Shown piece by piece: positions 14,044 to 35,800 of a DNA stretch of 64,000 nucleotides (position 1 is its first letter; each line of letters begins with the position of its first letter). The stretch lies in the NCBI GenBank assembly GCA_017406905.1, contig JAFQXN010000002.1:3501-67500 (forward strand), read 5' to 3'. The stretch comes from Candidatus Saccharimonadota bacterium. Lineage in GTDB: Bacteria; Patescibacteriota; Saccharimonadia; Saccharimonadales; Saccharimonadaceae. The position numbers and the translations under genes are program-made. The notes under the pieces were generated by a model, which saw only the letters and a program-made list of their open reading frames with translations, was not told the origin of the DNA and ran no database searches.

Positions 14044-14889
14044 TTATCGTTGTGATATATTTTTAAATACGTCTATGATATATGGGTAAACTTCTTCGAG
14101 CCTAAGCCAATTGATTGATTGATTACGCTTAAACCAAGTCATCTGGCGCTTGGCTAAGTGCCAATCTTCATAAAAACTACGTTCTTTGGCTTCGGACAAA
14201 CTGATTTTGTGATCAAGATAATCCCAGACATATTCGTAAATATTGCTTTTCATGGCTTGGTTATCCCAGCCGTAGGTTTGGACAAGTTTTTTGGTCTCGT
14301 CGTACAAATCTTGATTGAACATTTGGTCAATGCGTTGTTTGAGACGGCTACGTAATTCGGGTGTTTCCCATTTGATGCCAACGATGAGATAGTCGCCTTT
14401 TATCTCTTTACGGTCTGAACAAGTTTTTTGTTCAATGTCACCGATTTTGGCACCAGTCGGGCCTTTGAATTGATAATCGTAGATTAGTGCGTCAATATAA
14501 AGACCGGTGCCACCGACGATAATTGGGATTTTGCCTCTTGACTTGATGTCTTTAATCTTAGACTCCGCGTAAGATTTCCAATCGGCAACAGTGAAACGTT
14601 CGCCTGGCCTAACTAAATCTAGGCCGTAATGAGGGATACCTTGCATTTCTGCTGGCTCAGGTTTGGCAGTACCGATATCCATGCCCTCATAAATGGCGCG
14701 AGAGTCAGCGGAGATAATCTCGCCGCCAATAGCCTGTGCGATTTTAATGGATACACCGGTTTTGCCGGAGCCGGTGGGGCCCAGGATTACTACAACCCGT
14801 TCTCGACGGGTCCTGTCGCCGCCTCCTCCCCAGCGAAAATGTTGCGGGGGTCCCCCTCCGGCGGCACCGCCCATCGATATCAACATCAT
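14044..14889 (-). CDS. miaA: tRNA dimethylallyltransferase (with N-terminal hairpin-element insertion)
   Basis: GPTGSGKT, SADSRAIYEGMDIGTAKP, VGGTGLY, AKRQMTWF. The ATG overlaps the thrS TGA. Confidence 0.93.
   Translation of the reverse strand: MMLISMGGAAGGGPPQHFRWGGGGDRTRRERVVVILGPTGSGKTGVSIKIAQAIGGEIISADSRAIYEGMDIGTAKPEPAEMQGIPHYGLDLVRPGERFTVADWKSYAESKIKDIKSRGKIPIIVGGTGLYIDALIYDYQFKGPTGAKIGDIEQKTCSDRKEIKGDYLIVGIKWETPELRSRLKQRIDQMFNQDLYDETKKLVQTYGWDNQAMKSNIYEYVWDYLDHKISLSEAKERSFYEDWHLAKRQMTWFKRNQSINWLRLEEVYPYIIDVFKNISQR
14796..14874. repeat. GC-rich palindromic element, copy A (in-frame in miaA)
   Basis: Shares GACGGGTCCTG, CCTCCCC and GGGGGkCCCCCTCC with 34266-34359. Confidence 0.75.
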
Positions 14890-16652
14890 TTTAGGCCCTT
14901 GATAAACTCGGCAAGTTTGGAAAGTTTGACCTTTTCTTCCCTATCGCGGAGGCGGATGGAGACGACTTTTTCTTCGGCGTCTTTCGGGCCAACTACGAGA
15001 ACGGCTGGAATTTTCATCTCGGTAGCGCGTTTAATTTTCTTACCTAAAGAGTCAGCGGACTCATCAACGGTGTAGCGAAGTTCATTGTATTTAAGAGGCT
15101 TATCAAGAACGATACTGTCTAGGATTTTAGTAATCTCGGAGACATAATCAAACACGGTATTATTGACAGTAACAATGCGAACTTGCTCTGGGGCGCACCA
15201 AAACGGGAACCAGCCGCCGGTATGCTCAATAAATACAGACAAGAAGCGCTCGATAGAGCCGAGTGTGGCATGATGGATCATCACTGGACGTTCTTTCTCG
15301 CCTTTTTCATTGATAAACTCTAGGCCAAAACGCTCTGGCATGACGAAATCTAGCTGAATAGTGGCAAGCTGATGCTCGCGGCCAATGGCATCCTCAGCCA
15401 TAAAATCAATCTTCGGGCCATAAAAGGCGGCTTCGCCTTCTTGCTCAAAATAATCTAGACCATTGTCAATAGCGGCTTGCTTGATTTGGCCTTGCGCCAT
15501 GTCCCAAAGTTTCTTATCGCCGAGATATTTGTCTTCATCAGAGCGATAGGAAAGGCGGGCGCGGAGTTTAGACATACCCATAGTAGAATAAAGCTCTTTG
15601 ACGATGCCGACGAGGCGCTTAACTTCGTCTTTGATTTGGTCTTTACGACAAAAGACGTGAGAATCATCTTGCGTGAGCGAGCGTACGCGAGAAAGACCGC
15701 CGAGCTCACCAGTCTTCTCATCGCGGTAATCAGTGGTAGCTTCCATGTAGCGTACTGGCATCTCGCGATAAGTGCGCGGGCGAGAGGCAAAAATCTGAGT
15801 ATGATGTGGGCAATTCATGGGCTTCATAGCGAAATCGTCGCCATTGACTTGAGAGTGTACCATGAACAATTCATCGCCAAATTTAGCGTAGTGACCAGAA
15901 GTCTTGTATAAATCTGTTTTGGTGATATGCGGAGTCCAGACTTTCTTGAACCCTTCCCTGCCGCGGAGACTCAAAGAGTAGTTAGCCATGAGCTCACGAA
16001 GCTCAGTGCCGCGTGGAGTAAAGAGTGGTAAACCAGCGCCGACTAAGTCAGAAAAGCAGAACAAATCTAACTCTTTGCCGAGCTTGCGGTGATCGCGAGC
16101 TTTGGCTTCTTCTTGGCGTTTAAGATATTCATCTAATTCTGCTTGAGTGTTAAAAGCTACACCATAAATGCGCGTAAGCATAGGGCGCTTCTCATCGCCA
16201 CGCCAATATGCGCCAGCGACTCGGATAAGTTTGAAAGGGCCGACTTCGGATAAATCTTTGACGTGCGGGCCCTTGCAAAGGTCGGTAAAGACTTCGCCCA
16301 TATCGTAGAAGGAGATTTCGGCATCTTCGGGTAATTCTTCGATGAGCTCGATTTTACAATCTTGTTGGTGGTCGCGCGCCCAGTTAAGAGCTTCGGATTT
16401 TGATGAGGTGCGTTTGGTCATAGGCAGCTTGCGAGCAATAATTCCTCGCATTTTTTTCTCAATCTTGGATAGATCCGTATCGGAGATTTTAGTGTCGCCA
16501 AAATCTATATCATAATAAAAACCATTATCAATGGCAGGGCCGATGCCAAGCTTTGCTGTAGGATAAAGTTCCTGCACGGCAGCAGCGAGTACGTGACTTA
16601 GGGTATGTCTCATTTTTTCCAAATCAATATTGTCCTTCTTCTGAGGTTTCAT
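14886..16652 (-). CDS. thrS: threonine--tRNA ligase
   Basis: DLCKGPHV, RDHRKLG, KPMNCPHH, GEAAFYGPKIDF, TIQLDF. Confidence 0.98.
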   Translation of the reverse strand: MKPQKKDNIDLEKMRHTLSHVLAAAVQELYPTAKLGIGPAIDNGFYYDIDFGDTKISDTDLSKIEKKMRGIIARKLPMTKRTSSKSEALNWARDHQQDCKIELIEELPEDAEISFYDMGEVFTDLCKGPHVKDLSEVGPFKLIRVAGAYWRGDEKRPMLTRIYGVAFNTQAELDEYLKRQEEAKARDHRKLGKELDLFCFSDLVGAGLPLFTPRGTELRELMANYSLSLRGREGFKKVWTPHITKTDLYKTSGHYAKFGDELFMVHSQVNGDDFAMKPMNCPHHTQIFASRPRTYREMPVRYMEATTDYRDEKTGELGGLSRVRSLTQDDSHVFCRKDQIKDEVKRLVGIVKELYSTMGMSKLRARLSYRSDEDKYLGDKKLWDMAQGQIKQAAIDNGLDYFEQEGEAAFYGPKIDFMAEDAIGREHQLATIQLDFVMPERFGLEFINEKGEKERPVMIHHATLGSIERFLSVFIEHTGGWFPFWCAPEQVRIVTVNNTVFDYVSEITKILDSIVLDKPLKYNELRYTVDESADSLGKKIKRATEMKIPAVLVVGPKDAEEKVVSIRLRDREEKVKLSKLAEFIKGLK

Positions 16653-16712
16653 CTTTATCCTTTCTTTAACTATATATATTATAGTGTAAAAAGAGGAAAA
16701 TTACAACAGAGC

Positions 16713-17642
16713 TCAAAGGCCGAGCAGCAGAAGAATCATGAGTGGCATGGTGACGACTGAGAGAATAGTAGAGACGGTGACCAGCTCGGATGATTCGATA
16801 TTATTGCCGCCATATTTAGTGGCGAAAAGCCCGAGCGAGGTGGCAGTGGGGAGAGCCTGAATGAGCGTGCAGACCTGGATAACTTCAAGCGGAAAATGCA
16901 AAGCCGTGAGGATGCCCCAGGTAGCTAGTGGGCCAATAGTGAGTTGAATAAAGGCCGTAAGAATGAGGCGCCATTTCTTGAAAATGGCTTTGAAATCGGC
17001 GCGAGAAAGCATGAAGCCAATACAAATAATAGAAAGCGGCGTGGTAGCACCTCCTACGTAGCCAACAGCGTCAAGAATAAAGCCGGGAAGATGGATATTA
17101 GTGAGAAACAGAACCATACCAAGAAGAACCGCAAGGATATTAGGGTTAGTGACGATGCTTTTAAGGAGTTTGAATGAAATCTTATGTTCAAAAAGCCAGA
17201 TACCATAAGAAAAGAGAGCAATATTAAAGGCAATAATAAAGCCACAATAGGCAATAACTCCTGATGGGCCAAAAGTATTGACGACAATGGGGTAGCCTAA
17301 AAACGTAGCGTTGTTAAAAATTAGGGCGAATTGAGATTCGCAGCGGAGGCCGCCTTTAAACCACCACTTGTTGAAAATAATTCTGGATAGAATAATCAAC
17401 ATGAGCATTACGATAATACCGGCGACTAGCCCAGCGAAGAATAAATTGAGAGTAGAATCGTCATATTCGGATGGGAAAGCGACAAAAAGAGAGGCTGGCA
17501 TAAAGACCGTGAGAAGGAGGTTGGTTAATTCCCTGTTAGTACTGGTGCTGATGAGCTTCCACTTACCGAGCAAAAAACCAAGAATGAGAATAAGGGCGAT
17601 GGCGCCGAGTCTAGCGTAAAAAGTAGTGAGCTCGATCTCCAT
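16713..17642 (-). CDS. AEC (auxin efflux carrier) family transporter
   Basis: About 10 TM helices; NNATFLGYP, NPNILA, ALPTA motifs. Confidence 0.85.
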   Translation of the reverse strand: MEIELTTFYARLGAIALILILGFLLGKWKLISTSTNRELTNLLLTVFMPASLFVAFPSEYDDSTLNLFFAGLVAGIIVMLMLIILSRIIFNKWWFKGGLRCESQFALIFNNATFLGYPIVVNTFGPSGVIAYCGFIIAFNIALFSYGIWLFEHKISFKLLKSIVTNPNILAVLLGMVLFLTNIHLPGFILDAVGYVGGATTPLSIICIGFMLSRADFKAIFKKWRLILTAFIQLTIGPLATWGILTALHFPLEVIQVCTLIQALPTATSLGLFATKYGGNNIESSELVTVSTILSVVTMPLMILLLLGL

Positions 17643-17646
17643 ACTT

Positions 17647-18318
17647 TTATTTTAACATTTTTTTGGATTTTTTGCCGGAACCACCGCGGATATTAAGGAG
17701 CTTGTAAGTTTTGTTGATAACTTCGTCGTAGCCATCGTAGATTTTGATACTGCGTCCGAAAAAGTCAGTAAGATTTGGCTTAATGTCGCTAAAATTCGTG
17801 CAGGCTAGAATGAGAACTTTAGGGCGAAAGGCAGTCTTAGCGAGGAATAATTTGAGGGTAGTGGAGATTTCTTGTTCGGTGAGCTCGCCGTCATCAATCT
17901 TCGCAGGCCAAGAATCTAGGGAGAGCGTTTTGTGTTTGCATTTAAGATGGCGGAGAAAATTGTAGTAGTTGACCGTCTTAGTGACGGGCTTAGTGGTGAG
18001 GAGCAGAGTGTCTCGCATAATGTCGCTAGGCGTGAGATTGAAGCCGAGGAATTTTTGGGTTTTATATTTGCGTTTGAAATGCCTAAGGCTGGTGATGCTC
18101 AGAAAGTGATTGGCGAGGATGATGAGATCTACTTTGCCGAGATAGGGCCTGAGGGCTTGCTTGGCATATTCGCGAGCAAGGCGAGAGTTGGTTTGAATTT
18201 CTTGGGCGTGTCGCCAATCTATAACTCGGATAATTTCCACTAGAGGAAATTCGGTAGCGAGACGATCGGCAAAAAATTCGCCACCGTATCCGCAATCGAA
18301 AACTACAATTTTTAGCAT
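17647..18318 (-). CDS. Asp/Glu racemase-fold (MurI-like) protein, degenerate active site
   Basis: VFDCGYGG resembles VFDSGxGG and LACTNF resembles LGCTHF. The first catalytic ACNT is replaced by ANHF. Confidence 0.6.
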   Translation of the reverse strand: MLKIVVFDCGYGGEFFADRLATEFPLVEIIRVIDWRHAQEIQTNSRLAREYAKQALRPYLGKVDLIILANHFLSITSLRHFKRKYKTQKFLGFNLTPSDIMRDTLLLTTKPVTKTVNYYNFLRHLKCKHKTLSLDSWPAKIDDGELTEQEISTTLKLFLAKTAFRPKVLILACTNFSDIKPNLTDFFGRSIKIYDGYDEVINKTYKLLNIRGGSGKKSKKMLK

Positions 18319-18386
18319 TCTGATATACCTTTCTTTTGGCGCGATTATATCATAATTAATAGGGGAGAAAATTTTAGGATTATGAG

Positions 18387-18408
18387 TTATGCGACAAATG
18401 TCGCATAA
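18387..18408. promoter_or_regulatory. perfect palindrome TTATGCGACA-AA-TGTCGCATAA between divergent promoters
   Basis: 10-bp inverted repeat with 2-nt spacer, read directly. Confidence 0.5.
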
Positions 18409-18448
18409 GTATAGCGTTTATCGTGAAAAAGTGGTATAATGACAGGGT

Positions 18449-18525
18449 GGGTGATTAGCTCAGTTGGCTAGAGCGTCTCGTTTACACCGAGAAGGTCGGG
18501 GGTTCGAGCCCCTCATCACCCACCA
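18449..18525 (+). tRNA. tRNA-Val(UAC)
   Basis: Full cloverleaf, anticodon TAC, encoded CCA, TGG-TATAAT upstream. Confidence 0.97.
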
Positions 18526-18595
18526 TTTTTGTTGCACAAAAACTCAAAGGCGGGACTCGTTCTTCGAATCGAGCCCCTCATCACCCACCATTTTT
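18504..18595 (+). repeat. 27-bp direct repeat of the tRNA-Val 3' end (18504-18530 and 18569-18595); att-like scar
   Basis: TCGAGCCCCTCATCACCCACCATTTTT occurs twice, 38 bp apart. Confidence 0.9.
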
Positions 18596-18677
18596 TGTGT
18601 TGATTGTTCCATTAAAAAAACAACACGGATTCATCTGTGTTGTTTTAAATATAAATTATTTCTGTGCGTCACGGCGC

Positions 18678-19559
18678 CTAGCTATTTGCGCCTTTATTGA
18701 TTCTGTCTTCAATGTCCTTCGAAATCTTGCCTAAAAATTTTCCTAGTTCAGAATCGTCGATTACTCGCTCCGGCATCATCGGCTGATAGCCGGACTCATC
18801 ATTGCCTTTCCTGAGTTGCAATTTACCGTGATTCCGAGATTCCAATATTTCTTCGTTTTTTGCCATGTTGCTTGAAACCTTGATAAACTCTAGTCCGACT
18901 ATGTATAACTCATCAGGACTTTCCACATATTTTAACATTTCCCACGGATTAAGCAGAATGGTCTCTTCTCTCCCCCGCTCATTTACATATACCACTCGTT
19001 CTGCGTATTGGTTGGCGATCTCTCTCTTCACGTTCCCTTTTGTCGTGTTTTTATTAAACTCGCCAATATCGTCATAATCGTTACTCTTACCATTATCTCG
19101 ATTATTATTAGTTGTACCGCTGCTAATCACTTTTTCAATAAGAGCATGAAGTTCTGGCGATTCCTCTTTCGTTCCCAATACATAACCTCTATCTATTAGG
19201 TTTCGGCTGGTACCAAACTTCCAATGTTCTGCCAAATCCATGCATGCATCGCCGACAAAACACAGCTCATGAGGTGTCTCTGCAAACTGAGCCAAAGCAA
19301 ATGGATCATCATCAAAATATATATCTTCGCCATTTTTGCTTTCATATAACACTCGTTCCGCGTATTGCTTTACTAGTTGTCTTCTACCAATTTTATCGCT
19401 TAACTTATTGACATCCAAATCGCCAGTTTCATCAGATTTCAATAGACTATCTAAATCTTGTGGCTGCTGCCTATCTTCCCATTTCATCTTTGTTAAATCG
19501 TCCCACTGATGCCCTAATTGGTTTGGGCTATTGCTATTGGATTCTCCAGATTTCTCCAT
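18678..19559 (-). CDS. hypothetical acidic protein with an internal two-fold repeat
   Basis: QYAERVLYES..ETPHELCFVG versus QYAERVVYVN..ESPDELYIVG. Likely start MEKSGE at 19559. Confidence 0.75.
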   Translation of the reverse strand: MEKSGESNSNSPNQLGHQWDDLTKMKWEDRQQPQDLDSLLKSDETGDLDVNKLSDKIGRRQLVKQYAERVLYESKNGEDIYFDDDPFALAQFAETPHELCFVGDACMDLAEHWKFGTSRNLIDRGYVLGTKEESPELHALIEKVISSGTTNNNRDNGKSNDYDDIGEFNKNTTKGNVKREIANQYAERVVYVNERGREETILLNPWEMLKYVESPDELYIVGLEFIKVSSNMAKNEEILESRNHGKLQLRKGNDESGYQPMMPERVIDDSELGKFLGKISKDIEDRINKGANS

Positions 19560-19801
19560 GGCTGAGTGACCTTGTTTAGTTGATGAGGGCGGGCACATTA
19601 AAAATGGCACCGCAAGGGGTGCTACAACCAAATATATTACGGATTTCGCTCCATAAAACATTTGTTACCTTACGGTGCCAATTATATGTTCCATGAAGCT
19701 CCGTGATATAAAAATCGCGAATCCTTATAATATATTTAATTGTAGCAATTTTATTGTATCACGTTTACGATTTTTTGAGAAGACTAATTTGTGATGATGG
19801 G

Positions 19802-21427
19802 CTATTTTTTGACGATTTTTTTGGTGACATCAAACTTCTCCATGTAGAGGCCTAGCATGAGGCGAGTTTGTGCATAATAAGCCGCGAGCGACTGATACAA
19901 AATAGAAGTAATAGGCATGAGAATCCACTGCAGGAGCATGAAAACACTCCGGCTTTTGTGGTATTTGGCGGGGCGCTTCGGTAGGATGCGGAAAGAAATT
20001 AGGACAGTGATAATTAAGCCAATCATAGCAAAAGTCTCTACCCAGCTGACGATGTTGGGGAGATTGTAGGCAACCATAGTGTGGGAGGAATAGTTCATGA
20101 TCATTGGCACCCAGCCACCAAAAGTAATCAGTGGCGCCATGATAGCCAGCGTGACGTGGCCGTCTAGTAAGCGCCAGAATTTAGGAAAAAGCTGCCAAAA
20201 CGGCATCACGCGCTTACTTTTGGGAACGAAAAGCTTGGAGCCAACATAGGCTACGTCACTAGCACCGTAATACCAACGGCGTACCTGGATAAATTGGGCT
20301 TTGACTGTCTTCCAGAAAGTCTCGTCAATGACGGCGTCTTGATAAATGGGGATACGAATGGGTAAAACGGAGTAATCGCCGTCGAAAAAGAAGAGGCTGC
20401 GCCAGTACTGGTGGCCGTCTTCGACAATAGTGCGCTTGCTCCAAAAATCCATAGCCTTGAGAGCCTGAAGTGGCTGTGAATGGCTGGCAAAATTACGCAG
20501 TAAATGTGGGCGCATAGTAGTAATAATATTGAAGAAAGAATTGGAAACCGCAATAACACGAGTGGGGGCAGGAGCATCCCAGATATTGTTCATAAAAAGA
20601 GAGACCGGCTGATAACTGAGACGCTGGCGATTAGGGTGTGTAATAAATTCGTAAGCCACGGAATCTAGGTATTTCTCGGCCATGCGATTATCACTATCTA
20701 GAGAGGTGACGATGATGTTCTCGATAGGGAGGTGCTTCTTATCTACGTAATCGGCGACGGCGTGCCCAGCGTAAGTGAGATTAGGGCCTTTGCCGATGAC
20801 CTCACCATGGAGATTGGCGGGGTGCTTGACGAGAAGGAAATCTTTGAAAACACCTTTGTATTTTTGTTTGAGAGCGAGAGCGGTTTGCTCCATCGCTTCC
20901 CCGCCCCGCTCTTCGTAAGCTAAGGCAAAAATAATGTGGTCGTTTGGGAAAGTGGTATCTTGTACGGCCTTGATGGACGGAGAGAGAACGTCTTCGCCTT
21001 CATCGTAGGCGGTCATAATGACAACGTGATGAATTTTGGTGGGATCGGGATATTCTTTATGCATGGCTGCCATCATTTTGAGATTAGCAAGGTGCTCCTC
21101 AAAATGATAACTTTTGTTATCGTCGTCGCGCAGGCGCTCGTAGGCCTCATGTGGGTTAGCGAGGTCTTCTACACGCTTGCGCCAATTAATGCGCTCTGCC
21201 CTTTTGATGACGTTGTAGCCCTGTACTGTGCGATAGGCGACGCCGATGGCTTTAACTAATGTGGCGGTGATAAGGATGAATAAATAAATTGCCCCGAGGA
21301 TAGGATCTAGCCACGATAGTATGAACAATAAAATTATAGCGCCGTAAGAAATCAAACCTGGAAGAATCTCAAGGAAACGATAAAGTTTGGTGCGTTTCCC
21401 TTGTGGAATTTCGAGATTTTTGCGCAT
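19802..21427 (-). CDS. membrane glycosyltransferase family 2
   Basis: TSLDSD (DxD), IVEDGHQ, QVRRW (QxxRW); N- and C-terminal TM helices. Confidence 0.9.
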   Translation of the reverse strand: MRKNLEIPQGKRTKLYRFLEILPGLISYGAIILLFILSWLDPILGAIYLFILITATLVKAIGVAYRTVQGYNVIKRAERINWRKRVEDLANPHEAYERLRDDDNKSYHFEEHLANLKMMAAMHKEYPDPTKIHHVVIMTAYDEGEDVLSPSIKAVQDTTFPNDHIIFALAYEERGGEAMEQTALALKQKYKGVFKDFLLVKHPANLHGEVIGKGPNLTYAGHAVADYVDKKHLPIENIIVTSLDSDNRMAEKYLDSVAYEFITHPNRQRLSYQPVSLFMNNIWDAPAPTRVIAVSNSFFNIITTMRPHLLRNFASHSQPLQALKAMDFWSKRTIVEDGHQYWRSLFFFDGDYSVLPIRIPIYQDAVIDETFWKTVKAQFIQVRRWYYGASDVAYVGSKLFVPKSKRVMPFWQLFPKFWRLLDGHVTLAIMAPLITFGGWVPMIMNYSSHTMVAYNLPNIVSWVETFAMIGLIITVLISFRILPKRPAKYHKSRSVFMLLQWILMPITSILYQSLAAYYAQTRLMLGLYMEKFDVTKKIVKK

Positions 21428-21789
21428 TAGCCTTCTCCAAGTAGGCGAACTAATACGCAGAAGGTGCCAAGTATGAGTGCGGTGGTGATGATAAGGAAAA
21501 ATTTCGCCATGCCACTACCGCGCTTATGATAAATGCGGAGAGTGAGAAAAGTATGGATGACGCCAAAGGTTAAAGCGAGGAGTGGAAAGGCAATCATATC
21601 TACCCAAGAACCATCACGATAGCCCCCGATGTCGCCATAGCCGATTTTAACTACGGCACTGTTAGGATTGAGATGGATGATTGAAAAAATCAATAGGCCG
21701 ATTGAAAGAAGGATGTTGAGAATCATCGAGGCAAGAATGCCACGCTCGGAATGATAAATCTCAGCTATATCTTCTTTGAAAATATTCAT
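21427..21789 (-). CDS. small membrane protein
   Basis: 120 aa with 3 TM segments; translationally coupled to the GT2 gene. Confidence 0.75.
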   Translation of the reverse strand: MNIFKEDIAEIYHSERGILASMILNILLSIGLLIFSIIHLNPNSAVVKIGYGDIGGYRDGSWVDMIAFPLLALTFGVIHTFLTLRIYHKRGSGMAKFFLIITTALILGTFCVLVRLLGEG

Positions 21790-21791
21790 GG

Positions 21792-22385
21792 TTATTTACT
21801 TGTGAGCTTTGATACTACGGCGTTGACGTGCTGGATGAAGACGATATCACCGATAATGCCGATGATGCCGGTCAAAATCATGAGCCAGCCCACGAGAACG
21901 ACCACTGCGCCTGCATTAAAGGTGATGAAAATGCCCAAAACCAACATAATTAGAGCGAGAAGAATAATGCCCTTCCAGGCGGAGACGCCGGCGGTAGCAA
22001 GCTTGGTGGCGGTATTAACGCGGACTAGGGATTCGTAAATAATAATGATGCCTATAATAATGCGGAAAATATGCGCGATATCCTCACCAATCACGAGAGA
22101 GGCAATACCAATTAAAACTGAAACCACACCGGAGAGGAGGCCGTTATTAAAGAAATCGTTTTGACCTTTTACCATGAAATAATTGATAATCTGAAAGCCA
22201 CCTTTAACGATGAAAAATGCGCCGACGATATAGGCGAGAACCTGGATAATAGAATCTTGTAAAACGATAAAAAGTATGCCAAGAATCATCAATGCAAGCG
22301 ACTCGATAACGGCAGCCCAGGCGGATTTTTTGATGTCGTCACTGACCTGTTCGGCAGGGCGCTTGATAATTTCTACTTTGGACAT
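21792..22385 (-). CDS. HdeD/DUF308-family membrane protein
   Basis: Six-TM repeated pattern (ILGILF..IVGAFFIVKG..GVVSVLIG). Confidence 0.7.
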   Translation of the reverse strand: MSKVEIIKRPAEQVSDDIKKSAWAAVIESLALMILGILFIVLQDSIIQVLAYIVGAFFIVKGGFQIINYFMVKGQNDFFNNGLLSGVVSVLIGIASLVIGEDIAHIFRIIIGIIIIYESLVRVNTATKLATAGVSAWKGIILLALIMLVLGIFITFNAGAVVVLVGWLMILTGIIGIIGDIVFIQHVNAVVSKLTSK

Positions 22386-22471
22386 ATATTATCTCCTTAA
22401 TTATTTATATTATATCACAATATTGTGTTATAATGGAACAAGTGCTGGTGTCTTTACGGCTCGGCATGGGT

Positions 22472-22547: not shown

Positions 22548-22558
22548 TTTTTTATTGT

Positions 22559-24052
22559 TTACGATGCTTTACGGGGTTTGCGTTTTTTCTTGGATTTATC
22601 TGGGGCGGCTGCGGGGGCGGGGCGGCTGGCGAAATTGAGGGCGTGGAGGAGCTTTTGGCGGGCGTGCGGGGTGATGATGCGGTCAAGCCAACTGGATTTG
22701 GGAGTCTGATTTTTAGAGGTGAGAATCTCTACGATGTCGCCTTGTTCTAATTTTTTGTTCAGGTTACTCATCTTACCGTTGATTTTAACACCGATGACGT
22801 GATCGCCAATCTCGGAATGTAGACGATAGGCAAAATCAAGAGGGAGTGCACCTTTAGGGAGGTCAATAATATCGCCTTTAGGCGTGTAAACGAAAATTTT
22901 GTCGGCGAAAAGGTTGATTTTGAGTTTTTTGAGATCAACCTTTTTACCTTCGCGTAGTTTAGCAGCGGTCATTTGAAGCTCAGTAATCCAGAGCAGATTA
23001 GTAGGAAGATGCTCTATCTTTCCCTTTTTATAGTTTTCAGTGAGCTTTTGTTCGTTATAGTAGAAGCTAGCGGCAAGCCCACGCTCGGCGTATTCGTGCA
23101 TTTCTTTGGTGCGGATTTGGAACTCAACAATGCGTTTGTCTTTAGTGATGACGGTGGTATGGAGAGATTGATAGCCGTTTTGCTTGGGCATGGCGATATA
23201 ATCTTTAATACGGCCGTTCATGGGGGTATAGAGAGAATGAATAACGCCAAGCGTAAGATAACAGGTAGTGATGTCATCGACAATAATGCGCAGAGCGGTA
23301 AGGTCATAGATTTCGCCCATATTTTGATTATGCTTGGCGAGTTTTTTGTGAAGTGAATAAACTGACTTCACGCGACCAGATAAGGAATATTTGATTTTTT
23401 CTTTTTTGAGAGTAGAAGCAACTTCTTGTTCGATTTTTTGGAGAGATTTGGCGGCGGATTTATTGTATTTTTCGATTAAATCTTGGAGCTCGGTGAAGCG
23501 TTTAGGATCAACGTATTTGAAGGAAAGGTCGGCCATCTCGACACGAAGCAAGCCCATATTGAGCCGGTCGGCCAGAGGAGCAAAAACTTCGAGAGTTTCT
23601 TTGGCGATTTTTTTCTGCTTTTCTGGTGGGAGAGCGCTGAGAGTGCGAAGATTGTGTAGACGGTCGGCAAGCTTGATAATAAGGACGCGAATATCGTCGC
23701 CGAGCGCAATCATGAGTCGGAGAAAGTTGTCTCTGGTGGCTGGAAGATAAGTGTCAATGTCGCGCATGCCATCGCGAGCGGTAGATAATTTGGTAACGCC
23801 ATCAACGAGGAAGGCCACAGTCTCGCCAAATTCTTTACGTATGTCATCTAGAGTAAGGTCGGTATCTTCGACGGTGTCGTGCAAAATGCCGGCGATAATG
23901 GTGTCTTCGTCCATACCCCATTCTTCAAGGATTTTTTTGACGGCAAGCGGATGGACGATGTAAGGTTCGCCGGTTTTCCTGAATTGACCATCATGGGCTT
24001 TTTTGGCTAATTCAACGGCTTTTTTAACTCTGTCGGAATCTTTTGCCTTCAT
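22559..24052 (-). CDS. rel: RelA/SpoT (p)ppGpp hydrolase/synthetase (HD-SYNTH-TGS, no ACT domain)
   Basis: HDTVED, IKLADRLHNLRTL, GRVKS, KQNGYQSLHT, EFQIRT, TGS VYTPKGD. Confidence 0.93.
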   Translation of the reverse strand: MKAKDSDRVKKAVELAKKAHDGQFRKTGEPYIVHPLAVKKILEEWGMDEDTIIAGILHDTVEDTDLTLDDIRKEFGETVAFLVDGVTKLSTARDGMRDIDTYLPATRDNFLRLMIALGDDIRVLIIKLADRLHNLRTLSALPPEKQKKIAKETLEVFAPLADRLNMGLLRVEMADLSFKYVDPKRFTELQDLIEKYNKSAAKSLQKIEQEVASTLKKEKIKYSLSGRVKSVYSLHKKLAKHNQNMGEIYDLTALRIIVDDITTCYLTLGVIHSLYTPMNGRIKDYIAMPKQNGYQSLHTTVITKDKRIVEFQIRTKEMHEYAERGLAASFYYNEQKLTENYKKGKIEHLPTNLLWITELQMTAAKLREGKKVDLKKLKINLFADKIFVYTPKGDIIDLPKGALPLDFAYRLHSEIGDHVIGVKINGKMSNLNKKLEQGDIVEILTSKNQTPKSSWLDRIITPHARQKLLHALNFASRPAPAAAPDKSKKKRKPRKAS

Positions 24053-25741: not shown

Positions 25742-25867
25742 AATACTTACGATTATACCATAAAATACTGATAAATAAAATAAAAATAGCCTAAAGGTGG
25801 CAGAATTTGCAAAAGCGTGCCTTATGGACACGCTTCGCAAATTTTAACCGCCTTCGGTTTGGATTAT

Positions 25868-26176
25868 TTAGGAAATTTTGGTGATTTCGATTTCGGTGTA
25901 TTTCTGGCGGTGACCAGTTTCTTTGTGTACGCGCTTTTTGGCTTTGTAGCGAATAACGCGAACTTTATCACCTTTAACTTCGGGCGTTTTGACTTTAGCT
26001 GAAACTTTTACGCCCTTTACTGTAGGTGTGCCAACGGTGGTTTGATCGCCGTCGATTACGAGTAAAGCGTCAGTTTCGAGCTCTTTAGTGCCTGCCGGGA
26101 GGAGGTCCACCCGTAGGGACTCTTTTTCGGCAACGAGATATTGCTTCCCGCCGACGAGAATGACTGCTTTTTTCAT
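25868..26176 (-). CDS. rplU: 50S ribosomal protein L21
   Basis: GGKQYLVAE, GHRQKYTEIEI. Confidence 0.96.
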   Translation of the reverse strand: MKKAVILVGGKQYLVAEKESLRVDLLPAGTKELETDALLVIDGDQTTVGTPTVKGVKVSAKVKTPEVKGDKVRVIRYKAKKRVHKETGHRQKYTEIEITKIS

Positions 26177-26200
26177 ATAGTTCCTTTATAGTTACTCGTT

Positions 26201-27508: not shown

Positions 27509-30500
27509 TTAGAAATCTCCTTCTGCGACACGTGCTTCTTCTTTGGCGTCGCTATTATTATCTCCACCCGGTGTTGATTCTGCTTGAGCTTCTGCCTGAG
27601 CAGCGTTGCCTTGCCCATCTCTTTGTTGGCCTTGTTTTATCTCAGAGGCAGGATGGTAGGCGTTTTCGCCGGCCATTTCAGCGTTACCATTTTCGTTAGC
27701 AGCTTGGTTTTCACCACCCGGCAAACGAGTTTCGCCTTCAGTGGTAGCGCCCGGGGCCACTATGCCACTATCGGCAAAGCCAGTTTCTTCATTTATGCCA
27801 TTGTTTTCGCTGCCGGAGCCTGGAGTTGCTTGATTGTCATCAACGTAGCCTTGGTTGCCTTGATTTACTTGCTCGCTTTCTTCTCTAGTGACTTCAGAAT
27901 CGGGATCTACCTGGTCAGACGGCAACCTGTTGTCGCCGCTATTTGGGTCGCCGGATTTACCCCATTCAGGTTCAGGTTCTGGTTCTGGTTCGGGTTCAGG
28001 GCGTGGGCGAGGCTGAGGACGGGGTTCAGGCTGAGGTTGTGGGCGAGGTTGAGGTTCGGGCTCAGGTTCCGGTTCAGGCTGCGGCTCGGGCTGCGGTTGT
28101 GGTTCTGGTTCAGGCTGCGGCTCGGGCGTATCGTCTGGCGGCGTGACCGGGGTAGGAGTGTCGCTCGGTGGAGTTGTGTCGTCGGGAGGAGTAACCGGAG
28201 TTGGCGTGTCACTCGGTGGGGTAACTGGCGTAGTCGTATCACTTGGCGGCGTGACCGATGGCGTCGGCGTAGAGGTAGAAGGAGCAGGGGTTGGAGCGGT
28301 GTTTTGAGTCGGCAGGAACTCCCCGCGGGCAGTTTTTTGGATACAGTTAAGACGGTCTGACACGTAATCTAGCCTGTAATTATTTGGCAGATTCCATAGT
28401 CTACGAACGACATTGGTATCGTAAATCGAGTTGCCATCTTTATCGGTAAATACAATACCTATACCATTAGTAGGACGCTGGATGCGGCCCATGCGTTGCA
28501 AGATATTGCCATTGACCAATTTGGCCCAGGTCGAATATTGGTATTGATTCCCTGGCTCGGCGTAATTGATAAACCTAATTGTGCCGCCGTCAATTTTCTC
28601 GTAGAACATATCAAAGGTATCATTGACAAAGGCATCGTATGCTTCCCCATCGCGACTAATAATATCGGCGGCAAGGTTGATTTCGTCTTGGGTATCAATT
28701 AGTTCTGGCGCTCCGTCGCCATCAATATCCATTTCGAAGCCGCCACTGAGCATAACACGGGTAGAAACGATTGCTTCTGGAGAACGGCCAACAGTTTCTA
28801 GGTAAGTTTGGATAACTTCGCCTTCGGTGATTTCGTTGTTGTTGACTTTTTCCATGAAGAGGGCGTCGATTTCGGTGGAAGTGCGACCGTTGGCTTCCTC
28901 TCCTACCATCATGCGGACTACGGAAGCGCCGCTATTGTTGGCACCGTCGAGTCGCTTCATTTCGGAGAAGAAAGTGTCGTCCGTTTCACTGTAGCCGCCT
29001 TGACGAACTGCGTGCCTGACTTGAACCGCCTCACCGCTTGCGGTAGTAAGACTGGTGACGTCGTTAGTTTCTTCATACCCCATAGGAGTACCTGGATCTT
29101 TTTCGGCAATAAATCCATTTGTGGCTTCGAAGTCAGCAGCCTGAGTGACCGCTGTAGGCGTAGGTAAATCGTAAACTTCTTCACCTCTCATAATTTGATA
29201 TGCGTAGTTCATCTTGACGGCGTCTGGATTGTTGGCAACGATAGTGGCGACGTCTGGATGACCATCGCCGATAGTAGCGTAGACGTCAATATGGCCGTCT
29301 GCACCCTCGCGTACTATTTCGCCGTAGCCACCTAAGTATTGTTCACCATTAAAGAGGCTGGACTCCGGAGAACCTGCCGGAATAACGATGGTGCCATCTG
29401 GCTGAATGTCTACCGTGATGCCAGAGTTCGTGATACCATCACCTGGAGTAAGGAGCATTTTCATACCGGTCAAATCAGTGTTGGAGCCGGGGCGAGGAGC
29501 CACTTGCATAACAATATCGCCGTTGTCGCCCATGTGCGCACCACCGACAATAACTTGAGGGTTGCCATTATTATCGGTAATCCAACTTCTACTAGTAATT
29601 TCTGTAAGGTTATTAGTGTCTTTGTTATCAAGATTGAAATATTCTTTGAGTGCGACCGGTTTAGTGGCGTCTTCGACTGGGATTTCAGTTTCAAACTCTT
29701 TGATTTCGAACCCGGCATCTTCGAACATTTTCTTGGACTCTTCAGTTAGGGAGCCGTCTGGATTGTATTCTATGCCGCTAGCGTCGCCTTGGCCGATGAT
29801 TTCTTCGCCGTTAATTTTGACGTTATAGCCGCCGTTGTCGTCGAGTGATAATTCGGCTACGTTGCTAGAGTCAGAGATTTCTTCCCCAGCAGTAGCGCCT
29901 GCCGCCACTCCTGCTGCGGTGGCGTCTCCGGCCTGCCAGTGGGCGCGAATTTGCGATGATATAGCGCCAGCCGCACCACCAATCGTGGCGCCGATGATGC
30001 CGTCTACCAGGGCTTGCCTTGCCATAAACTTATACCGTGCCCGGTTCGCTTCTTTGTTGTCTTTTTCAAATTGTTGGATGTCGCTTGCGATGCGAGCATC
30101 AATTTCTTCTTCTGATACGTCTGCTCTGAGCAAATTATCCCTGGCATTACTTAATAACACAGCGAGTAGCAAACGTTCGCGAGCGATATCGCCGTGTTTG
30201 CCATCAAATGCGATTAAGTCTATGCCGAGATCGGCGGAAGCTCGGTTGCGAGCTATGGCATCAGCGTATGCCTCTACGAGCTTGTCTTTAAGCTCTGCCA
30301 AATCGGCATCTGCCTCTGGTTCGGAGAGCTGATGGTTGAGCTCATTGAGGTTATCCATGATTTCGGCGGAACTTTTGCGTTTGCGAGCCGCTTCAATGGC
30401 TTTTAGGTATTTGTCTTCGCCAGTAGCTTTGCGTTTGGCACTGTTAGCGGCGCTGTTAATTTTGGCGAGAAGACCGCGGAAGGATTTTTGCTCGGCGGCG

Positions 30501-31756
30501 TTGAGGCCTTCGGGTTTGCCGGATTCCGATTCTGTCGATTCTGATTCGGATTCGGATTCGGATTCTTCTTGCGGCTGCTCTTCGCCTTCGGCGCTGGATT
30601 CTGACGCCTGAGATTCTTCACTTTCTGGTGAAGCTTCTTCCGGTTCTGCTGGAGCTTCGGCATCAGAGCCGTCGGTGGCGTGTTTGATTTCGCTTTCGGA
30701 AATTTTAATGCTAGCTTGGCGCGCGCCACGAGCGGCACCAAAGATGCCGCCGAGGGCAGCACCGACGCCAATTGACCCACCCAAAGCAGCGCGAGCGCCG
30801 ACGCGACTTTGGTAGCCCAATACGGTGTAAGCGATGGCACCAACAGCGCCACCTTTAGCGACTGCCTCTAAGATGGAATTGACTTTTTGTTTAGTATAAA
30901 CTCCTTCTTTCATGGATGCACGATAAAGCGAAAGATTTTCGTCAAGGTAGGCGTTCAAATCTTGCTTGCTAATATCTTCTTCGGCGAGCTGTTTGATGCC
31001 GGCCTTGGCGTCTTTGATGCCGTCCAGTACGGTGATATGCTGTTTGGTGTGGTCGCCTATCAAATAGCGCATCACTGGCGAATTAAGAATACCGCCTTGT
31101 GCACCCTGCGCAAACATCCCCTCAGCTTGCCAAGCATCAATTTGACTGTCGAATTTTTCTTCGGCAGCTTTACGCTCTTCGTCGGTCTTAGCGGATTTTA
31201 AGTCGGCCAGTAAATCTGTGAGAGCACCTTTGATTTTGGCTTTTTCTTCGTCTTTGACGGCGATTTTTTCGATGCTTTCGCCTTTGTTTAATGCAACGCT
31301 ATCTTCGGAGCTGATGGAACTACCCTCTTCGGGAAAGCCGGCATCTTCGAGCGCCAATCTTGCACGTGCGCGGTTATCTTCGGCGCCATCACCGGCAGCG
31401 ATACGGCTTTGGAAGTTTTCTAAATCTAGGCTGGCGGCGGCAGAAGAAAGCTTGCCAGTTTTGGCGACTGCGCCAGAAGCTTTAGTACGATAATAGGCGG
31501 CCAGGAGAGGCTTGACGACGAGGCTGACAACGGGAGTTTTAGCAAGCGAATTAAAAAATCCCTTCTGTTTCATTTTTTGTTCAGCGGCTTCATTGATGGC
31601 ATTGCTGCGGTCAGTCTGATCCATTTCGTTAAGAACGAGAGAAAGAGAGCCTAAATGCTTTTTAATGGTGTCTTTTCTTTCATTATCGAGCGTGTACTCT
31701 GCGCTAGCGGAGTCTTCAGGACTCCGATTATCTTTTGGTGTGGGTGCTGCATCCAT
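27509..31756 (-). CDS. large (1415 aa) acidic protein with glycine-zipper hydrophobic segments and Pro-rich linker
   Basis: Long ORF in an operon with its neighbours. GxxxG-rich helices at about aa 300-355 and 580-600. Confidence 0.8.
27965..28295 (-). repeat. coding tandem repeats ([15 protein letters not shown]; PEPQ/PRPQ dipeptide runs)
   Basis: For example GGTTCAGGCTGCGGCTCGGG occurs twice. Confidence 0.85.
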
Positions 31757-31764
31757 GATTAATT

Positions 31765-32217
31765 TTACTCCTCTGTCCCCTTAGGGGTGTTTTCTCCAAG
31801 ATAGATTTCGCGGAAGCGAGCCATGGTGGCGCCGGTGATTTCGCTGGCGTCAAGGCCGGCGTCGATTATCATTTGGGCGATAACGTCGGGGGCAATCTGA
31901 CCGTTTTCGGCGGCCATCTTGCCAAGCTCTTCAAGTTTATCTTCTGGCAGCTCAGATACAAGAGAGCGGTCAATTTGTTCGAGGAGGCTAGCCTTGAGGT
32001 CGTTGTAGATGTCTTGATACATGGCTTCTTTTGAAGAATCGATGCCTTTTTCTTGCATAATGCCGCGGATGAAAAGATCAATAGTTTCCTCATTGGTGAG
32101 GTTGGCTAACATTTCGTCTTCGGAAAGGTTAGAGGTATCGTCAGCGGTGGGGGCGCCGTGGATTGCCGCTTCGTCTTGTTGAAGTGATGCAAAGGCATCT
32201 GTAGTATTGTTGTCCAT
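31765..32217 (-). CDS. hypothetical acidic helical protein (possibly DUF5663-like)
   Basis: 150-aa ORF with TTGACA-17-TACAAT promoter upstream. Family call is by resemblance only. Confidence 0.65.
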
Positions 32218-32320
32218 GTGTGAAGACCTTTCTATTAACTTTATGTATAACCTTTTTCTTTTATAATTGTAATGCTTATATTACCTGATGTCAAGCTTGT
32301 AAATTTATTGCGATAATGAA

Positions 32321-32345
32321 AAAACCGAACATCGTGTTCGGTTTT
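32321..32345 (-). terminator. intrinsic terminator AAAACCGAAC-5-GTTCGGTTTT
   Basis: 10-bp perfect inverted repeat downstream of 32401-32601. Confidence 0.8.
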
Positions 32346-32400
32346 ATGCTTGCGGTGTGAAAGGTATAATAAATGAAGTTGTGGCTATGAGGTGGATAGA

Positions 32401-32601
32401 TTATGCGGCAAGTTTTTTCTCTAGGCCCAAGATACCAAGCTTAATATTACGTTGCTTAATTCTTTCGAGACTTTCTCGTGAAACTCTATTTTTGGAAATA
32501 TAGTCTGCTTCTTGGGGGTAAGGCATAAAATCGGCATCATCAATATCGTCTTGCCAATCTGCGTTGACTACTTTGTTTGGTAAATTAATAACTTCTGCCA
32601 T
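32401..32601 (-). CDS. 66-aa small protein ending in -KKLAA
   Basis: SD AAAAGGA 5 nt upstream, own TTGACT-17-TATACT promoter and own terminator. Confidence 0.7.
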   Translation of the reverse strand: MAEVINLPNKVVNADWQDDIDDADFMPYPQEADYISKNRVSRESLERIKQRNIKLGILGLEKKLAA

Positions 32602-32800
32602 GTTTTTCCTTTTTGTTTTTGTTTTATTGGTTGTTAGAATGTTTATTTTATTTTCTAACTTACTTTGAGTATAGCACACTTAGGCGAAAAAGTCAATACT
32701 TTTTATGCTAAAAAATGAGATTTTGTCAACATCGCCTCTGGAAAAAGCTTGAAAAAACATCAAAAAGGTAGCGGCTCACCGGCTGAAGCTGATATGATAA

Positions 32801-35800
32801 TTATAATTTTTCTAATGAGATGGTGATATTTTCGCCGTTGACTTTGGCGATTTCGTCATGAGCGTAGTTAGAGTTTAGCTCAATATTATCAGCGAGAACT
32901 TCAGACTTAATCATATCAAGATGCTCTTCGGGTGGGACAATCGAGAGAGAGAGTTTAATTTTATCACCAGGGGCGAGGCCAGCGTGCTTACGAGCAGATT
33001 GAATGACACGGATGAGCTCACGGGCTTGACCTTCCCTTCTGAGTTCATCGGTAATGGTCTTATCTAGGGTAAATTCATTGGTGTTTTCGACTATTTTGAC
33101 GTTGACTTCGTCAGCGATGATTTGTTCATAAAAACTATCGAGCTTATCACCGTCATAGGTGAGCCTAGAGAGAGGCTGGCGAATTTTAATTTGTTCCTCG
33201 ATGTCGGACTTCTGCATGCGGAGAGCAAGAGCGTCGGTGATGATTTGGCGGGTGCGTGACATTTGCGCTAAAACTTCGGTGTCAATAACGTTCGGTTCTG
33301 GCCAATCCAGAAGATGGACGGAATCGGTGGAGCCAGTGATTTTTTGATAAAGCTCTTCGGCAAGGAATGGAGTAAAGGGAGCAAGAAGTTTGCTGAGATA
33401 AACTAAGACATAGTAAAGAGTAGCGAAGGCTTGTTTTTTATCTGCGGCATCTTTGTTTTTATTGAAGCGGCGGCGTGAACGACGAACAAACCAATTACTC
33501 ATATCATCAATGAACGGTAAAACACCATCTAACGCCCGGGGGATGTTGTACTCTGCCATACCCTCGGTGATTTGCTTTTGCAGCTCATAGATACGAGAGA
33601 CAATCCAGATATCGAGTGGAGAGCTTGAAATGCCTTCATCTCGGGACGGGGTTCTCGCGCCCGTCTTTACGGGGCTCGGCTCCTCGCTGTCTCGGTGGCA
33701 ACCTCCGAAGCGCCCTCGATTGGAGGCATTTTCAAGCTCTTCCGAATCTATGTTTTCAATTTCCGCATATGTCGTGAAGAAGTCGTAGACATTCCAAACC
33801 ATAGCCAATTTACGGTTGATGTCGGAGACGTCTTTATCAAGAAGGGCAAAATCTTCGCCAGAAAGAACCGGTGAGCTAAGCAAGAGAAAGCGAAGGCTAT
33901 CGGCAGAGTATTGATCCATGAGCTCATTAGGATCGGTGTAATTGCCAAGGGATTTGCTCATTTTGCGGCCATCATTCCCCGCTAATGTGCCGGTGGTGAT
34001 GACATTTTTATAGGCATTTTTGGCGCCGTTTTTGGCCTTTTCGCCAAATGCACCGATGCTGGCGAGGGCAGTGTTTACTGCGTGGACGTAGTAGAACCAA
34101 GCGCGAACTTGACCAACATATTCCACAATGAAATCAGCTGGGTAGTTGGATTCGAATTTGGCTTTGTTTTCGAATGGATAGTGGAGTTGAGCAAAAGGCA
34201 TGGAGCCAGATTCGAACCAACAGTCGAGAACTTTCTCGATGCGGGTGAAATGCTCGAGGTGGGCGCCCGTTTCGCTGGACGGGTCCTGCCGGGCATTTTC
34301 CTCCCCCACGTCGCTAACGGCTCCGTGGGGGGCCCCCTCCATGCCCGTCACCCGTCCATGCAAAACATACGCATCAAACTCAACTTCGTCCACCCATGGA
34401 CGATGATAGTCGTCGAGTTTCTTGCCGGAGTATTTTTCTAACTCTTCGTAAGAGCCAATAACAATAGTAGTGCCCTCTTTGGATTTCCAGACTGGCATGG
34501 CGGTAGCCCAGAAACGGTCGCGAGAAAGATTCCAATCTGGTGCTTGTTCAATATTATTGGCAAAGCGGCCGTGCTTGAGATAGGCTGGGAACCAGTTGAT
34601 GTTCTCGTTTTCCTCTAACATCATTTGTTTCTGGCCGTTAATATCGAAAAACCAAGACGGGAAGGCGCGATACATAATGCGTTCTTTGCTGCGGGGATTA
34701 AATGGATATTCATGCTGGATGTATTCAATTTTGTAGATGATGCCCTTCTCTTCGAGGACTTTGGCAATAAATTTGTTGCCGGCCCAGGCTTGAATACCGT
34801 GGTCATCGGTATCGCGGACGCCAAGTGCATGAAGAGTGTCGGCCATTTCTGGGAGATAGTAGCCATTTTCGTCTAGACAATCTACAAAATCAACTTCATA
34901 CTGCTGCGCAAGAGCGTAATCATCTTCACCGTAAGCTGGCGCGATGTGGACAATGCCGGTACCATCGCCGGCGGATACAAAATTACCCGGAAGTACAGAG
35001 TAGGTATCTTTGCGCTGGACTGTACCCTGGTCGCCACGAAAGCCAAGATCATACAAACCATCGGCGACGGAGATGATTGGCTCGTAATGTTTGCCGACGA
35101 GATGGGAGCCTTTGAAAGCTTTTTCTGGCTTTTGGTCTGGGAAAAGGACTTTAGCGCGCTCAAGGGCGACGATTAGTTTATCGCCGTTTACATCGTAGAT
35201 ACCGTAGTCGAGCTCTGGATTGACGGCGAGGCACATATTGGCGGGGAGAGTCCAGGGGGTAGTAGTCCAAGCTAGGAGGTACATAGGGGAGCCGACATGC
35301 GCCAGCTCGCCGCTAGCTAGCTTGAACTTAACATACGCGCTGGGATCGGTGACGGTTTGGTAGGCATCGTTATCCATGGTGACCTCGGCTTTTGATACTG
35401 GAGTTGCGAATTTAGTATCGTACATGAGAACTTTGCGACCTTCGTAAATCTTGCCAGCGTCGTAGAGCTGCTTAAAGGCCCACCAGACTGATTCCATAAA
35501 ATCTTTATTCATGGTGCGGTAACAGTTGTCAAAATCCACCCAGCGACCAATGCGATCGATGGTGCTACGCCAAGTCTCAGAATTTGCAACCATAGATTCG
35601 CGCGCCTTAATGATATAATCCTCTAGGCTCCATTTCGTGCCGATGTCGCGGCGGTCTTTAATGCCGAGCTGTTTTTCGACAAAATTTTCAGCTGGTAAAC
35701 CATGACAGTCCCAACCCCAGCGGCGCTCAACCCTGTAGCCGTTCATAGTCCAATAGCGCGGCACAGCGTCTTTGACGATTGAGCTGAGAAGAGTGCCGTG

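Follow-up and report, generated by a model that had tools for sequence, protein, structure and literature searches.

Rickettsia palindromic elements (RPEs; Ogata et al. 2000) are palindromic repeats of about 100-150 bp that are found, inserted in frame, in numerous housekeeping genes belonging to a reduced genome, each family specifying one conserved peptide in one reading frame, and no transposase is known for them (PMC10969869). The present study concerns a 64,000-nt stretch of DNA from a Candidatus Saccharimonadota bacterium, an ultra-small gut organism (contig JAFQXN010000002.1, positions 3,501 to 67,500; hereafter the window), in which two palindromic segments, copy A at the 5' end of miaA and copy B inside ileS, very probably represent a short, GC-rich, non-autonomous mobile hairpin element of ruminant-gut Saccharibacteria that resembles RPEs and would be translated as probably disordered loops. 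The G+C content of the window is 45% and its best IleRS matches are named Candidatus Saccharibacteria. Saccharibacteria and other bacteria of the candidate phyla radiation (CPR) have tiny, streamlined genomes that are usually called poor in mobile DNA, and we know of no enzyme that has been found to move the Rickettsia elements.

Repetitive extragenic palindromes (REPs) are 20-40 nt long, extragenic and marked by a conserved GTAG, and the byp elements of yeast mitochondria derive from GC clusters. Prokaryotic MITEs (miniature transposable elements with inverted repeats), such as Correia, ERIC, Chunjie and QMITE, are small and non-autonomous, give stable stem-loop transcripts and are occasionally fused in frame to genes; they are typically AT-rich and intergenic, with direct repeats of the target at their flanks (PMC10969869). 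Full-text literature searches on Saccharibacteria and Patescibacteria found no description of elements like those reported here, in agreement with the initial annotation of the window, which knew of none in CPR bacteria.

Distribution and consensus of the repeat family

A pattern derived from copies A and B, GGAGGGGGMCCCC-N(20-50)-CAGGACCCGTC, was run on one genome per species (185,579 species, 596 Gb) and gave 77 matches in 73 stretches, every one in assemblies of Candidatus Saccharibacteria or Candidatus Nanosyncoccus, the latter being classed in Saccharimonadota. The matching assemblies number about 40, come from the guts of goat, sheep, cattle, buffalo, yak and deer, and hold up to five or six matches each. 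Loci of relatives that carry copies were then fetched (76 loci, with L-numbers below), and a covariance model built from 66 distinct copies, A and B among them, found 105 copies in 622 kb of these loci, or about one additional copy per 20 kb beyond those by which the loci had been selected. The scans, which the initial annotation had called for, recovered dozens of further copies, and the same peptide is kept only in the closest relatives, so that the outcome it had named as refuting, amino-acid conservation in close relatives with no other genomic copies, was not seen. Neither the A/B pattern nor the core of another family, represented by copy C (below), was found in 2.9 million viral contigs, in which phage vectors were looked for.

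When copies were aligned with 60-70 nt of flank, conservation was high over about 90 nt and sharply lost outside, the flanks being unrelated. The consensus reads AACAT-[G/C]GACGGGTGAC-stem-GGAGGGGGMCCCCC-apical stem-loop-GGGGGAGGAGAA-stem-GGCAGGACCCGTC[C/G]-AGAGA. The element itself is 75-95 nt long and bounded by the inverted repeat (N)NGACGGGT / ACCCGTCN(N), so that it is short (<500 bp) and carries terminal inverted repeats as a MITE does, and its G+C content is 0.67 versus 0.45 for the window. In a sheep metagenome, depth over copy B peaked at 99x against a background of 6x. Searches of sequencing runs for RNA returned DNA metagenomes in contig form and a single run of unspecified kind, and when contigs were aligned to the locus the joints were untidy and an empty allele did not emerge cleanly.

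Within the window, the two segments lie where the initial annotation had placed them, with their ends redefined, and the ordered blocks that it had described as common to both were recovered. The copies and their host genes are:

14803-14877, minus strand: copy A, 75 nt (25 codons) measured across both inverted repeats, at the 5' end of miaA
34276-34358, minus strand: copy B, 83 nt from inverted repeat to inverted repeat, inside ileS
14044-14889, minus strand: miaA, tRNA dimethylallyltransferase, 281 aa, with copy A as an N-terminal extension
32801-35965, minus strand: ileS, isoleucyl-tRNA synthetase, 1054 aa, with copy B at about aa 531-570 and copy C at about aa 745-780

The element-sense strand of both copies is the window minus strand, as for miaA and ileS, and the exact blocks GACGGGTCCTG and GGGGKCCCCCTCC occur within the window only in A and B. 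Copy B, which with its semi-conserved tails covers about 34270-34366, has the sense strand TGGACGGGTGAC...GGCAGGACCCGTCCA and encodes the peptide HGRVTGMEGAPHGAVSDVGEENARQDPS, which most orthologs do not have; one predicted peptide that spans the IleRS insert is QDPSSETGAHLEHFTR. Copy A has a partly decayed left inverted repeat (GATGGGC where the family has GACGGGT), and the ATG of miaA overlaps the thrS stop codon as ATGA (14886-14889). The covariance model scored B at 97.1 bits (E 5.8e-21) and A at 60.7 bits (E 2.7e-12), and no score above 15.3 bits was seen in the rest of the window. A plain local alignment of A with B is of modest significance (z = 3.1), since variable stems break up the conserved blocks, and the weight of evidence therefore rests on the whole family, the matches of which rule out chance: A and B are members of one repeat family.

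Two side observations concern the covariance model. A terminator-like hairpin at 7477-7523 of the window (AAAAAGACCGGT..ACCGGTCTTTTT) resembles the outer stem GACGGGT/ACCCGTC and scored weakly (15 bits), and L017 (4541-6637) has four matches in about 2 kb, a local cluster of copies in and around tgt.

Folding, reading frames and host genes

The element forms one long, imperfect hairpin with near-invariant ends, GACGGGT...ACCCGTC, and conserved purine-rich bulges, GGAGGGGG and GGAGGAGAA, between which lie two stems that are variable yet complementary. For each of copies A and B the fold is a nested hairpin of three stems (z about -3 to -3.9 relative to shuffled sequences), and the covariation claimed for their middle stem is borne out, since the stem is unlike in the two copies yet paired in both (GCCGCC/GGCGGC versus GGGCAT/ATGCCC). 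Across the 66 copies, 93.9% of stem cells hold standard pairs, compared with 39-51% when the partners are slid by one to three columns; cells changed on both sides number 227, compared with 29-88 in the slid controls, and the covariation score is 0.34, compared with at most 0.09. The forms of the middle stem are always matched (GGCCC/GGGCC, GGACC/GGTCC, GCGCA/TGCGC, AGTCG/CGACT, TGCCGCC/GGCGGCG). On the consensus strand, as written, there are 55 G-U pairs versus 16 A-C mismatches, some of these counts being inherited and not independent, and this excess hints that the consensus strand is the one that folds. Rfam gave no family match, intron-like families included. An intein or self-splicing intron was considered and rejected: the inserts are 25-40 aa long and conserved as DNA rather than protein, besides the negative Rfam result.

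The blocks shared by A and B are read as GGA GGG GGA CCC in miaA and as G GAG GGG GCC CCC in ileS, so the different frames given in the initial annotation are correct. Among twelve orthologous IleRS copies, nucleotide diversity within the element is 0.24/0.24/0.27 at the three codon positions, versus 0.10/0.05/0.48 in 250 flanking ileS codons. The flanks are under classical purifying selection and the insert is without selection at the protein level; with third-position bias lacking in the insert and present in the flanks, conservation is therefore at the nucleic-acid level, as had been claimed, and several frames and both orientations are used across the family.

Of 79 distinct copies, 53 are in or at the edge of long open reading frames (ORFs): 28 internal in sense orientation, 14 internal antisense, eight N-terminal extensions and three at an ORF edge, leaving 26 outside long ORFs. 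The hosts, identified by Pfam and by clustering, are about 20 unrelated housekeeping genes, in addition to the intergenic copies. They include IleRS and ArgRS (two sites each), MiaA, MnmA, Tgt and TsaE-TsaB; a pseudouridine synthase, a THUMP-type methyltransferase, YchF, PriA, PolA and an ExoI-like exonuclease; and a class-V aminotransferase, FemAB, prepilin peptidase, ParA, PBP2 and a P-type ATPase. The initial annotation had remarked that both of its host genes act on tRNA, but with PriA, PolA, ParA, PBP2, the P-type ATPase, prepilin peptidase, YchF and FemAB among the hosts there is no special link, and the tRNA-acting hosts of A and B reflect the gene content of minimal genomes, not a preference of the element.

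At least five combinations of frame and orientation are in use and give unrelated peptides; the encoded segments are rich in G, P, S, R, E and D. Because the element is GC-rich its frames are mostly open, each of the six being free of stops in 70-92% of copies, and in all 50 of the copies that are internal or N-terminal in long ORFs the frame is kept and no stop codon falls in the host frame. It appears, then, that copies surviving in essential genes are those with a length that is a multiple of three, no stop in the host frame and a permissive place such as a loop, linker or N-terminus, and the intact reading frames suggest that copies within genes are translated as extra segments rich in these residues, which are probably disordered.

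Gain, loss and possible movement

Orthologs of IleRS (75-84% identity) range from 977 to 1087 aa, with length variation at hot spots near query residues 220, 531 and 745, each of which is empty in many relatives and elsewhere holds inserts of 30-57 aa from several families; a given hairpin family also changes hot spot from one genome to another. The alignment to solved IleRS structures runs to residue 529, covers 573-731 and continues from 780, the gaps corresponding exactly to inserts B and C. The insert at residue 745 belongs to the other family already mentioned:

33621-33739, minus strand: copy C, a GC-rich hairpin insert of another family in ileS, with outer stem GAGCTTGAAAATGCC/GGCATTTCAAGCTC and core GCCCCGTAAAGACGGGCGCGA

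Copy C encodes the peptide NRGRFGGCHRDSEEPSPVKTGARTPSRD. Two frames (PRNDGRD or PVTTGA) are used for the family core, GCCCCGTAAMGACGGGCGCGA, which is also present elsewhere (8 of the 76 loci fetched); in P0029 it is ileS site 1 that holds this family. Of 120 MiaA ortholog clusters, about 55 show the short N-terminus M-x-T-I-I-ILGPTGSGKT, and orthologs with the short N-terminus MQTIIILGPTGSGKT are without copy A; a compact thrS-miaA junction is seen in L011. Other MiaA clusters have extensions of 10-70 aa that belong to at least six families, with the A/B family present there in at least three frames. The extra peptides proposed in the initial annotation are in this way supported, as both inserts are missing from many orthologs and B also from all solved IleRS structures, and the ortholog alignments that it had suggested display both empty and filled sites. 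In codon-level alignments, filled and empty alleles differ by whole codons in IleRS, MnmA, ArgRS, RluB, prepilin peptidase and the aminotransferase. One MnmA site holds an antisense copy in L037, L070 and L058 and a sense copy in L065. Two sites that are empty in the window are filled in relatives:

43158-43209, no strand assigned: empty intergenic site; the orthologous site in L072 holds a family copy
63348-63590, minus strand: argS segment with an empty site; the orthologous site in L026 holds a family copy

Copies have thus been both gained and lost, and the ileS and miaA sites are hot spots at which several hairpin families replace one another. A 981-aa cluster member was tried as an empty IleRS allele and rejected, being merely truncated at its N-terminus.

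Several observations on these and neighbouring sites may be recorded. Intergenic copies in L024, L034, L039, L044, L045, L048, L061 and L072 are often followed, 5-15 nt downstream, by an extended -10 box, TGNTATAAT, the window site at 43158-43209 being counted with these; extended -10 promoters seem to be the kind that these genomes use. Between rplU and parA the window has a long intergenic hairpin (25760-25890, -45 kcal/mol). At that position a copy of the A/B family is found in L020 and a plain terminator in L067, and the window hairpin may itself be either a terminator or a further element. The strongest fold outlier of the window (z -4.5) is a hairpin of about 110 nt between divergent genes at 54821-54940, unrelated to the A/B family. 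L061 (2470-2695) has a 225-nt palindromic element between thrS and miaA with ends AAAGCAAACGGGTAA / TTACCCGTTTGCTTT and with ACGGGT/ACCCGT near its termini. Elements in L051 (about 1870-1925) and L052 (about 5830-5890) have only the 3' end CTGGCAGGACCCGTCCAG in common with the A/B family, their inner hairpin being different (GGACTTTCTTT..AAAGAAAGTCC), which suggests modular or chimeric families. The ArgRS of L026 (argS) carries, besides its A/B-family copy, two copies of another insert, SRNP(H/Y)EDFEVSEPC(N/D)DRRERTRS, and a P0026-like ArgRS is listed alongside. Several GC-rich islands unrelated to hairpin elements stem from an ORF of 1415 aa at 27509-31756 with long PE/PQ/PT low-complexity repeats. 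As candidate elements, the GC-rich stretch at 22570-22698 proved to be the C-terminus of RelA/SpoT and the PolA linker at 52701-53066 was not a hairpin element, and a family listing by de novo clustering of GC-rich islands was confounded by orthologous genes and was not used.

Non-orthologous copies have a mean identity of 0.84 within a genome versus 0.78 between genomes. In JAZQJM a private stem is common to five loci, two of these copies being identical; the L063 and L066 copies differ at one base; and in JAFWKW the IleRS and prepilin-peptidase copies are identical save for the two outermost base pairs. This likeness within genomes indicates recent copying or gene conversion. At two clean pairs of filled and empty sites (L047 versus L015, and L072 versus L013, L028 and the window) no target-site duplication was found, although the initial annotation had named such duplications as something to look for, and flank statistics showed no direct repeat around copies. 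At one clean junction TATAACAT|TGTTGTAA takes in GGACGGGT...ACCCGTCCAGAA, and at the other GATTAA(G)|TATGCTATAAT takes in (G)ACGGGT...ACCCGTCTTG(G). About 60% of copies are preceded by ACAT, possibly as part of the element; one clean site has TTAA instead.

Some empty sites hold fragments of element ends, namely AAACATGGA|CC in L057, CATGGCGGGTAACCG in L011 and GACGG(C/G) in three others. The L057 remnant is as expected from deletion between the GGAC repeats in both ends, and such remnants mean that elements are also lost. The L020 copy occupies the place of the rplU terminator hairpin of a relative, with a T-run after it. New insertions may be drawn to remnants or small palindromes, which would explain hot spots such as those in ileS and at the thrS-miaA junction. 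Just outside GACGGGT/ACCCGTC, the bases that face each other at the first two positions are complementary in 62 and 56 of 79 copies, compared with 14 of 79 for the third position, yet at the first two, copies that are identical elsewhere can differ. Possible causes are subfamily structure, insertion into tetranucleotides that are palindromic, and short templated fill-in.

Strong covariation, conservation of unpaired blocks and an excess of G-U over A-C on one strand would also be produced by a structured RNA or single-stranded DNA motif under host selection, acting as an mRNA stabiliser, terminator, protein-binding site or regulator. Such an explanation could point to the copy that substitutes for the rplU terminator and to the many intergenic copies just upstream of extended -10 boxes, but we consider it improbable: 28 copies are sense and 14 antisense to host transcription, the genes concerned are unrelated, about 20 in number and have close orthologs that lack the copies, the same sites hold unrelated hairpin families, and Rfam has no match. 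Individual copies could have acquired a function at a single site after insertion.

Loss of the inserts from the mRNA by excision, or ribosomal skipping as in T4 gene 60 or with yeast mitochondrial byp, which are likewise GC-rich hairpins inserted in coding sequence, has somewhat less to recommend it. Constraint on frame and stops would be needless in a skipped insert, and the 50 long-ORF copies all obey it; filled and empty alleles differ by whole codons, and neither take-off and landing codon pairs nor intron-like Rfam matches were seen. Still less probable is the local origin and growth of the palindromes by template switching during replication (quasipalindrome correction) with no transposition. 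Templated correction could inflate the apparent covariation, and would suit the near-perfect complementarity of even the hypervariable stems and the outer two base pairs that vary between otherwise identical copies, but as sole explanation it is already contradicted, since it cannot account for conserved blocks of about 30 nt that are not palindromic (GGAGGGGGMCCCC, GGGGGAGGAGAA, GGCAGGACCCGTC) and that recur at over 20 unrelated loci across some 40 genomes.

A host-useful peptide, spread by recombination as a selected protein module, was suggested by its partial conservation at orthologous sites (HGRVT..EG.P...VGEE..RQDPS in 12 IleRS orthologs); it is already contradicted by frame usage, the same DNA giving unrelated peptides in at least five frames and orientations, with no third-position excess of variation and with the segment missing from most orthologs, and its probability is negligible. 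An artefact of assembly or binning, conceivable in that all the data derive from assembled metagenomes and an assembler can be misled by repeats, is just as implausible: assemblies made independently, in separate studies and from separate sources (ENA, NCBI, Logan), agree on the insert and its place, and reading frames are always preserved.

A mobile hairpin element therefore remains by far the best reading of A and B, and a number of points weigh against it. Retention of the inserts in mRNA and protein is argued from the integrity of ORFs. An AlphaFold2 model of the IleRS from a shallow alignment shows residues 543-565 and 749-779 as low-confidence coil, but it is poor overall (mean predicted local distance difference test 58, predicted template modelling score 0.38), so that it lends disorder of the inserts little support. 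All members of the 90% identity clusters of IleRS and MiaA, within the window's own species, carry the inserts, and no strain-level polymorphism or movement was seen. Similarity within genomes could stem from gene conversion instead of recent transposition, and the lack of target-site duplication comes from two intergenic pairs with a flank identity of only about 75-85%. As to a mobiliser, a RAYT (REP-associated tyrosine transposase) or IS200-type gene, which the initial annotation had proposed to seek, did not turn up in 686 kb, the only DNA searched, by tblastn with IS200 TnpA and E. coli RAYT queries (best E = 0.17, a weak negative), and no ORF in the same 686 kb was enclosed by a pair of family ends as an autonomous parent element would be.

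If the element is mobile, its mover may be an enzyme acting in trans on a folded single strand that it recognises. Such a mobiliser is inferred because stems are conserved as structure and unpaired bases as sequence, and because of the two clean insertions without target duplications and the G-U excess on one strand. It might be a HUH/Y1-type transposase of the IS200/IS605 or RAYT type, or a comparable structure-specific recombinase, an identification that we offer tentatively. Insertion seems to prefer existing palindromes and remnants of old elements. A bolder proposal, which we think unlikely, is a transposition or recombination system, so far undescribed in CPR bacteria, that reads the shape of the hairpin and a few unpaired bases, makes no target duplication, prefers palindromes and leaves two templated complementary bases; were this true, the hairpins would be a major, ongoing source of new surface loops in the essential enzymes of minimal genomes. 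Less likely than such a system is that the hairpins serve the host as RNA, in a way set by their structure and not by context.

Essential genes (ileS, argS, miaA, mnmA, tgt, priA, polA) are thus repeatedly invaded by several families of hairpin repeats, which offers, beside Rickettsia, a second natural system in which to study how selfish DNA survives in genes, how new protein loops arise and by what means such elements move. In marker proteins such as IleRS and MiaA, lengths that vary by 30-110 aa, together with GC-rich islands, can be expected to disturb gene calling, start-site prediction, alignments and phylogenies of the phylum. The conserved ends and bulges provide concrete sequences with which to seek the mobilising enzyme.

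Comparison with known systems

Mitochondria provide the more distant parallels. Yeast mitochondrial GC clusters and byp elements, and the coding palindromes of Nematomorpha mitochondria (PMC6649704), are also GC-rich or palindromic selfish inserts in genes of small genomes. The Nematomorpha palindromes differ in being organellar, long and perfect, with both arms coding (PMC6649704). The byp elements are likewise organellar and are bypassed by the ribosome, whereas the frame and stop constraints of the A/B family would indicate read-through. With MITEs the A/B family shares small size, non-autonomy and terminal inverted repeats, but it is GC-rich, has about two thirds of its copies in ORFs and shows no target duplication.

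Closer in possible mechanism are REPs and bacterial interspersed mosaic elements (BIMEs), which RAYTs mobilise, and the palindrome-associated elements derived from IS200/IS605. These too are non-autonomous hairpins with stems conserved as structure and unpaired bases as sequence, they make no target-site duplication, and strand asymmetry is expected of them. The A/B hairpin is larger than a REP (75-95 nt) and mostly intragenic, and the 686 kb gave no Y1/HUH gene, the negative being weak as stated. The features point, by analogy, to hairpin-recognising systems of the REP/RAYT or IS200/IS605 type, membership in which is not claimable without an enzyme.

The initial annotation had likened A and B to RPEs. 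What holds of that parallel is a set of dispersed palindromes in a reduced, host-dependent genome, inserted in frame in unrelated ORFs that are preserved; what does not is a fixed frame and orientation and a conserved peptide. The A/B family is shorter (75-95 nt) and GC-rich, is used in at least five frames and orientations where an RPE family keeps to one frame, has stems conserved as structure only and not as peptide, and coexists with several other families at common hot spots. There is no sign of a sequence relation, in that the pattern is limited to Saccharibacteria among the 185,579 species genomes, a comparison that did not extend to the RPE-1 to RPE-10 consensus sequences themselves. 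The resemblance to RPEs thus lies in how the palindromes are accommodated in genes, and the difference in what is conserved.

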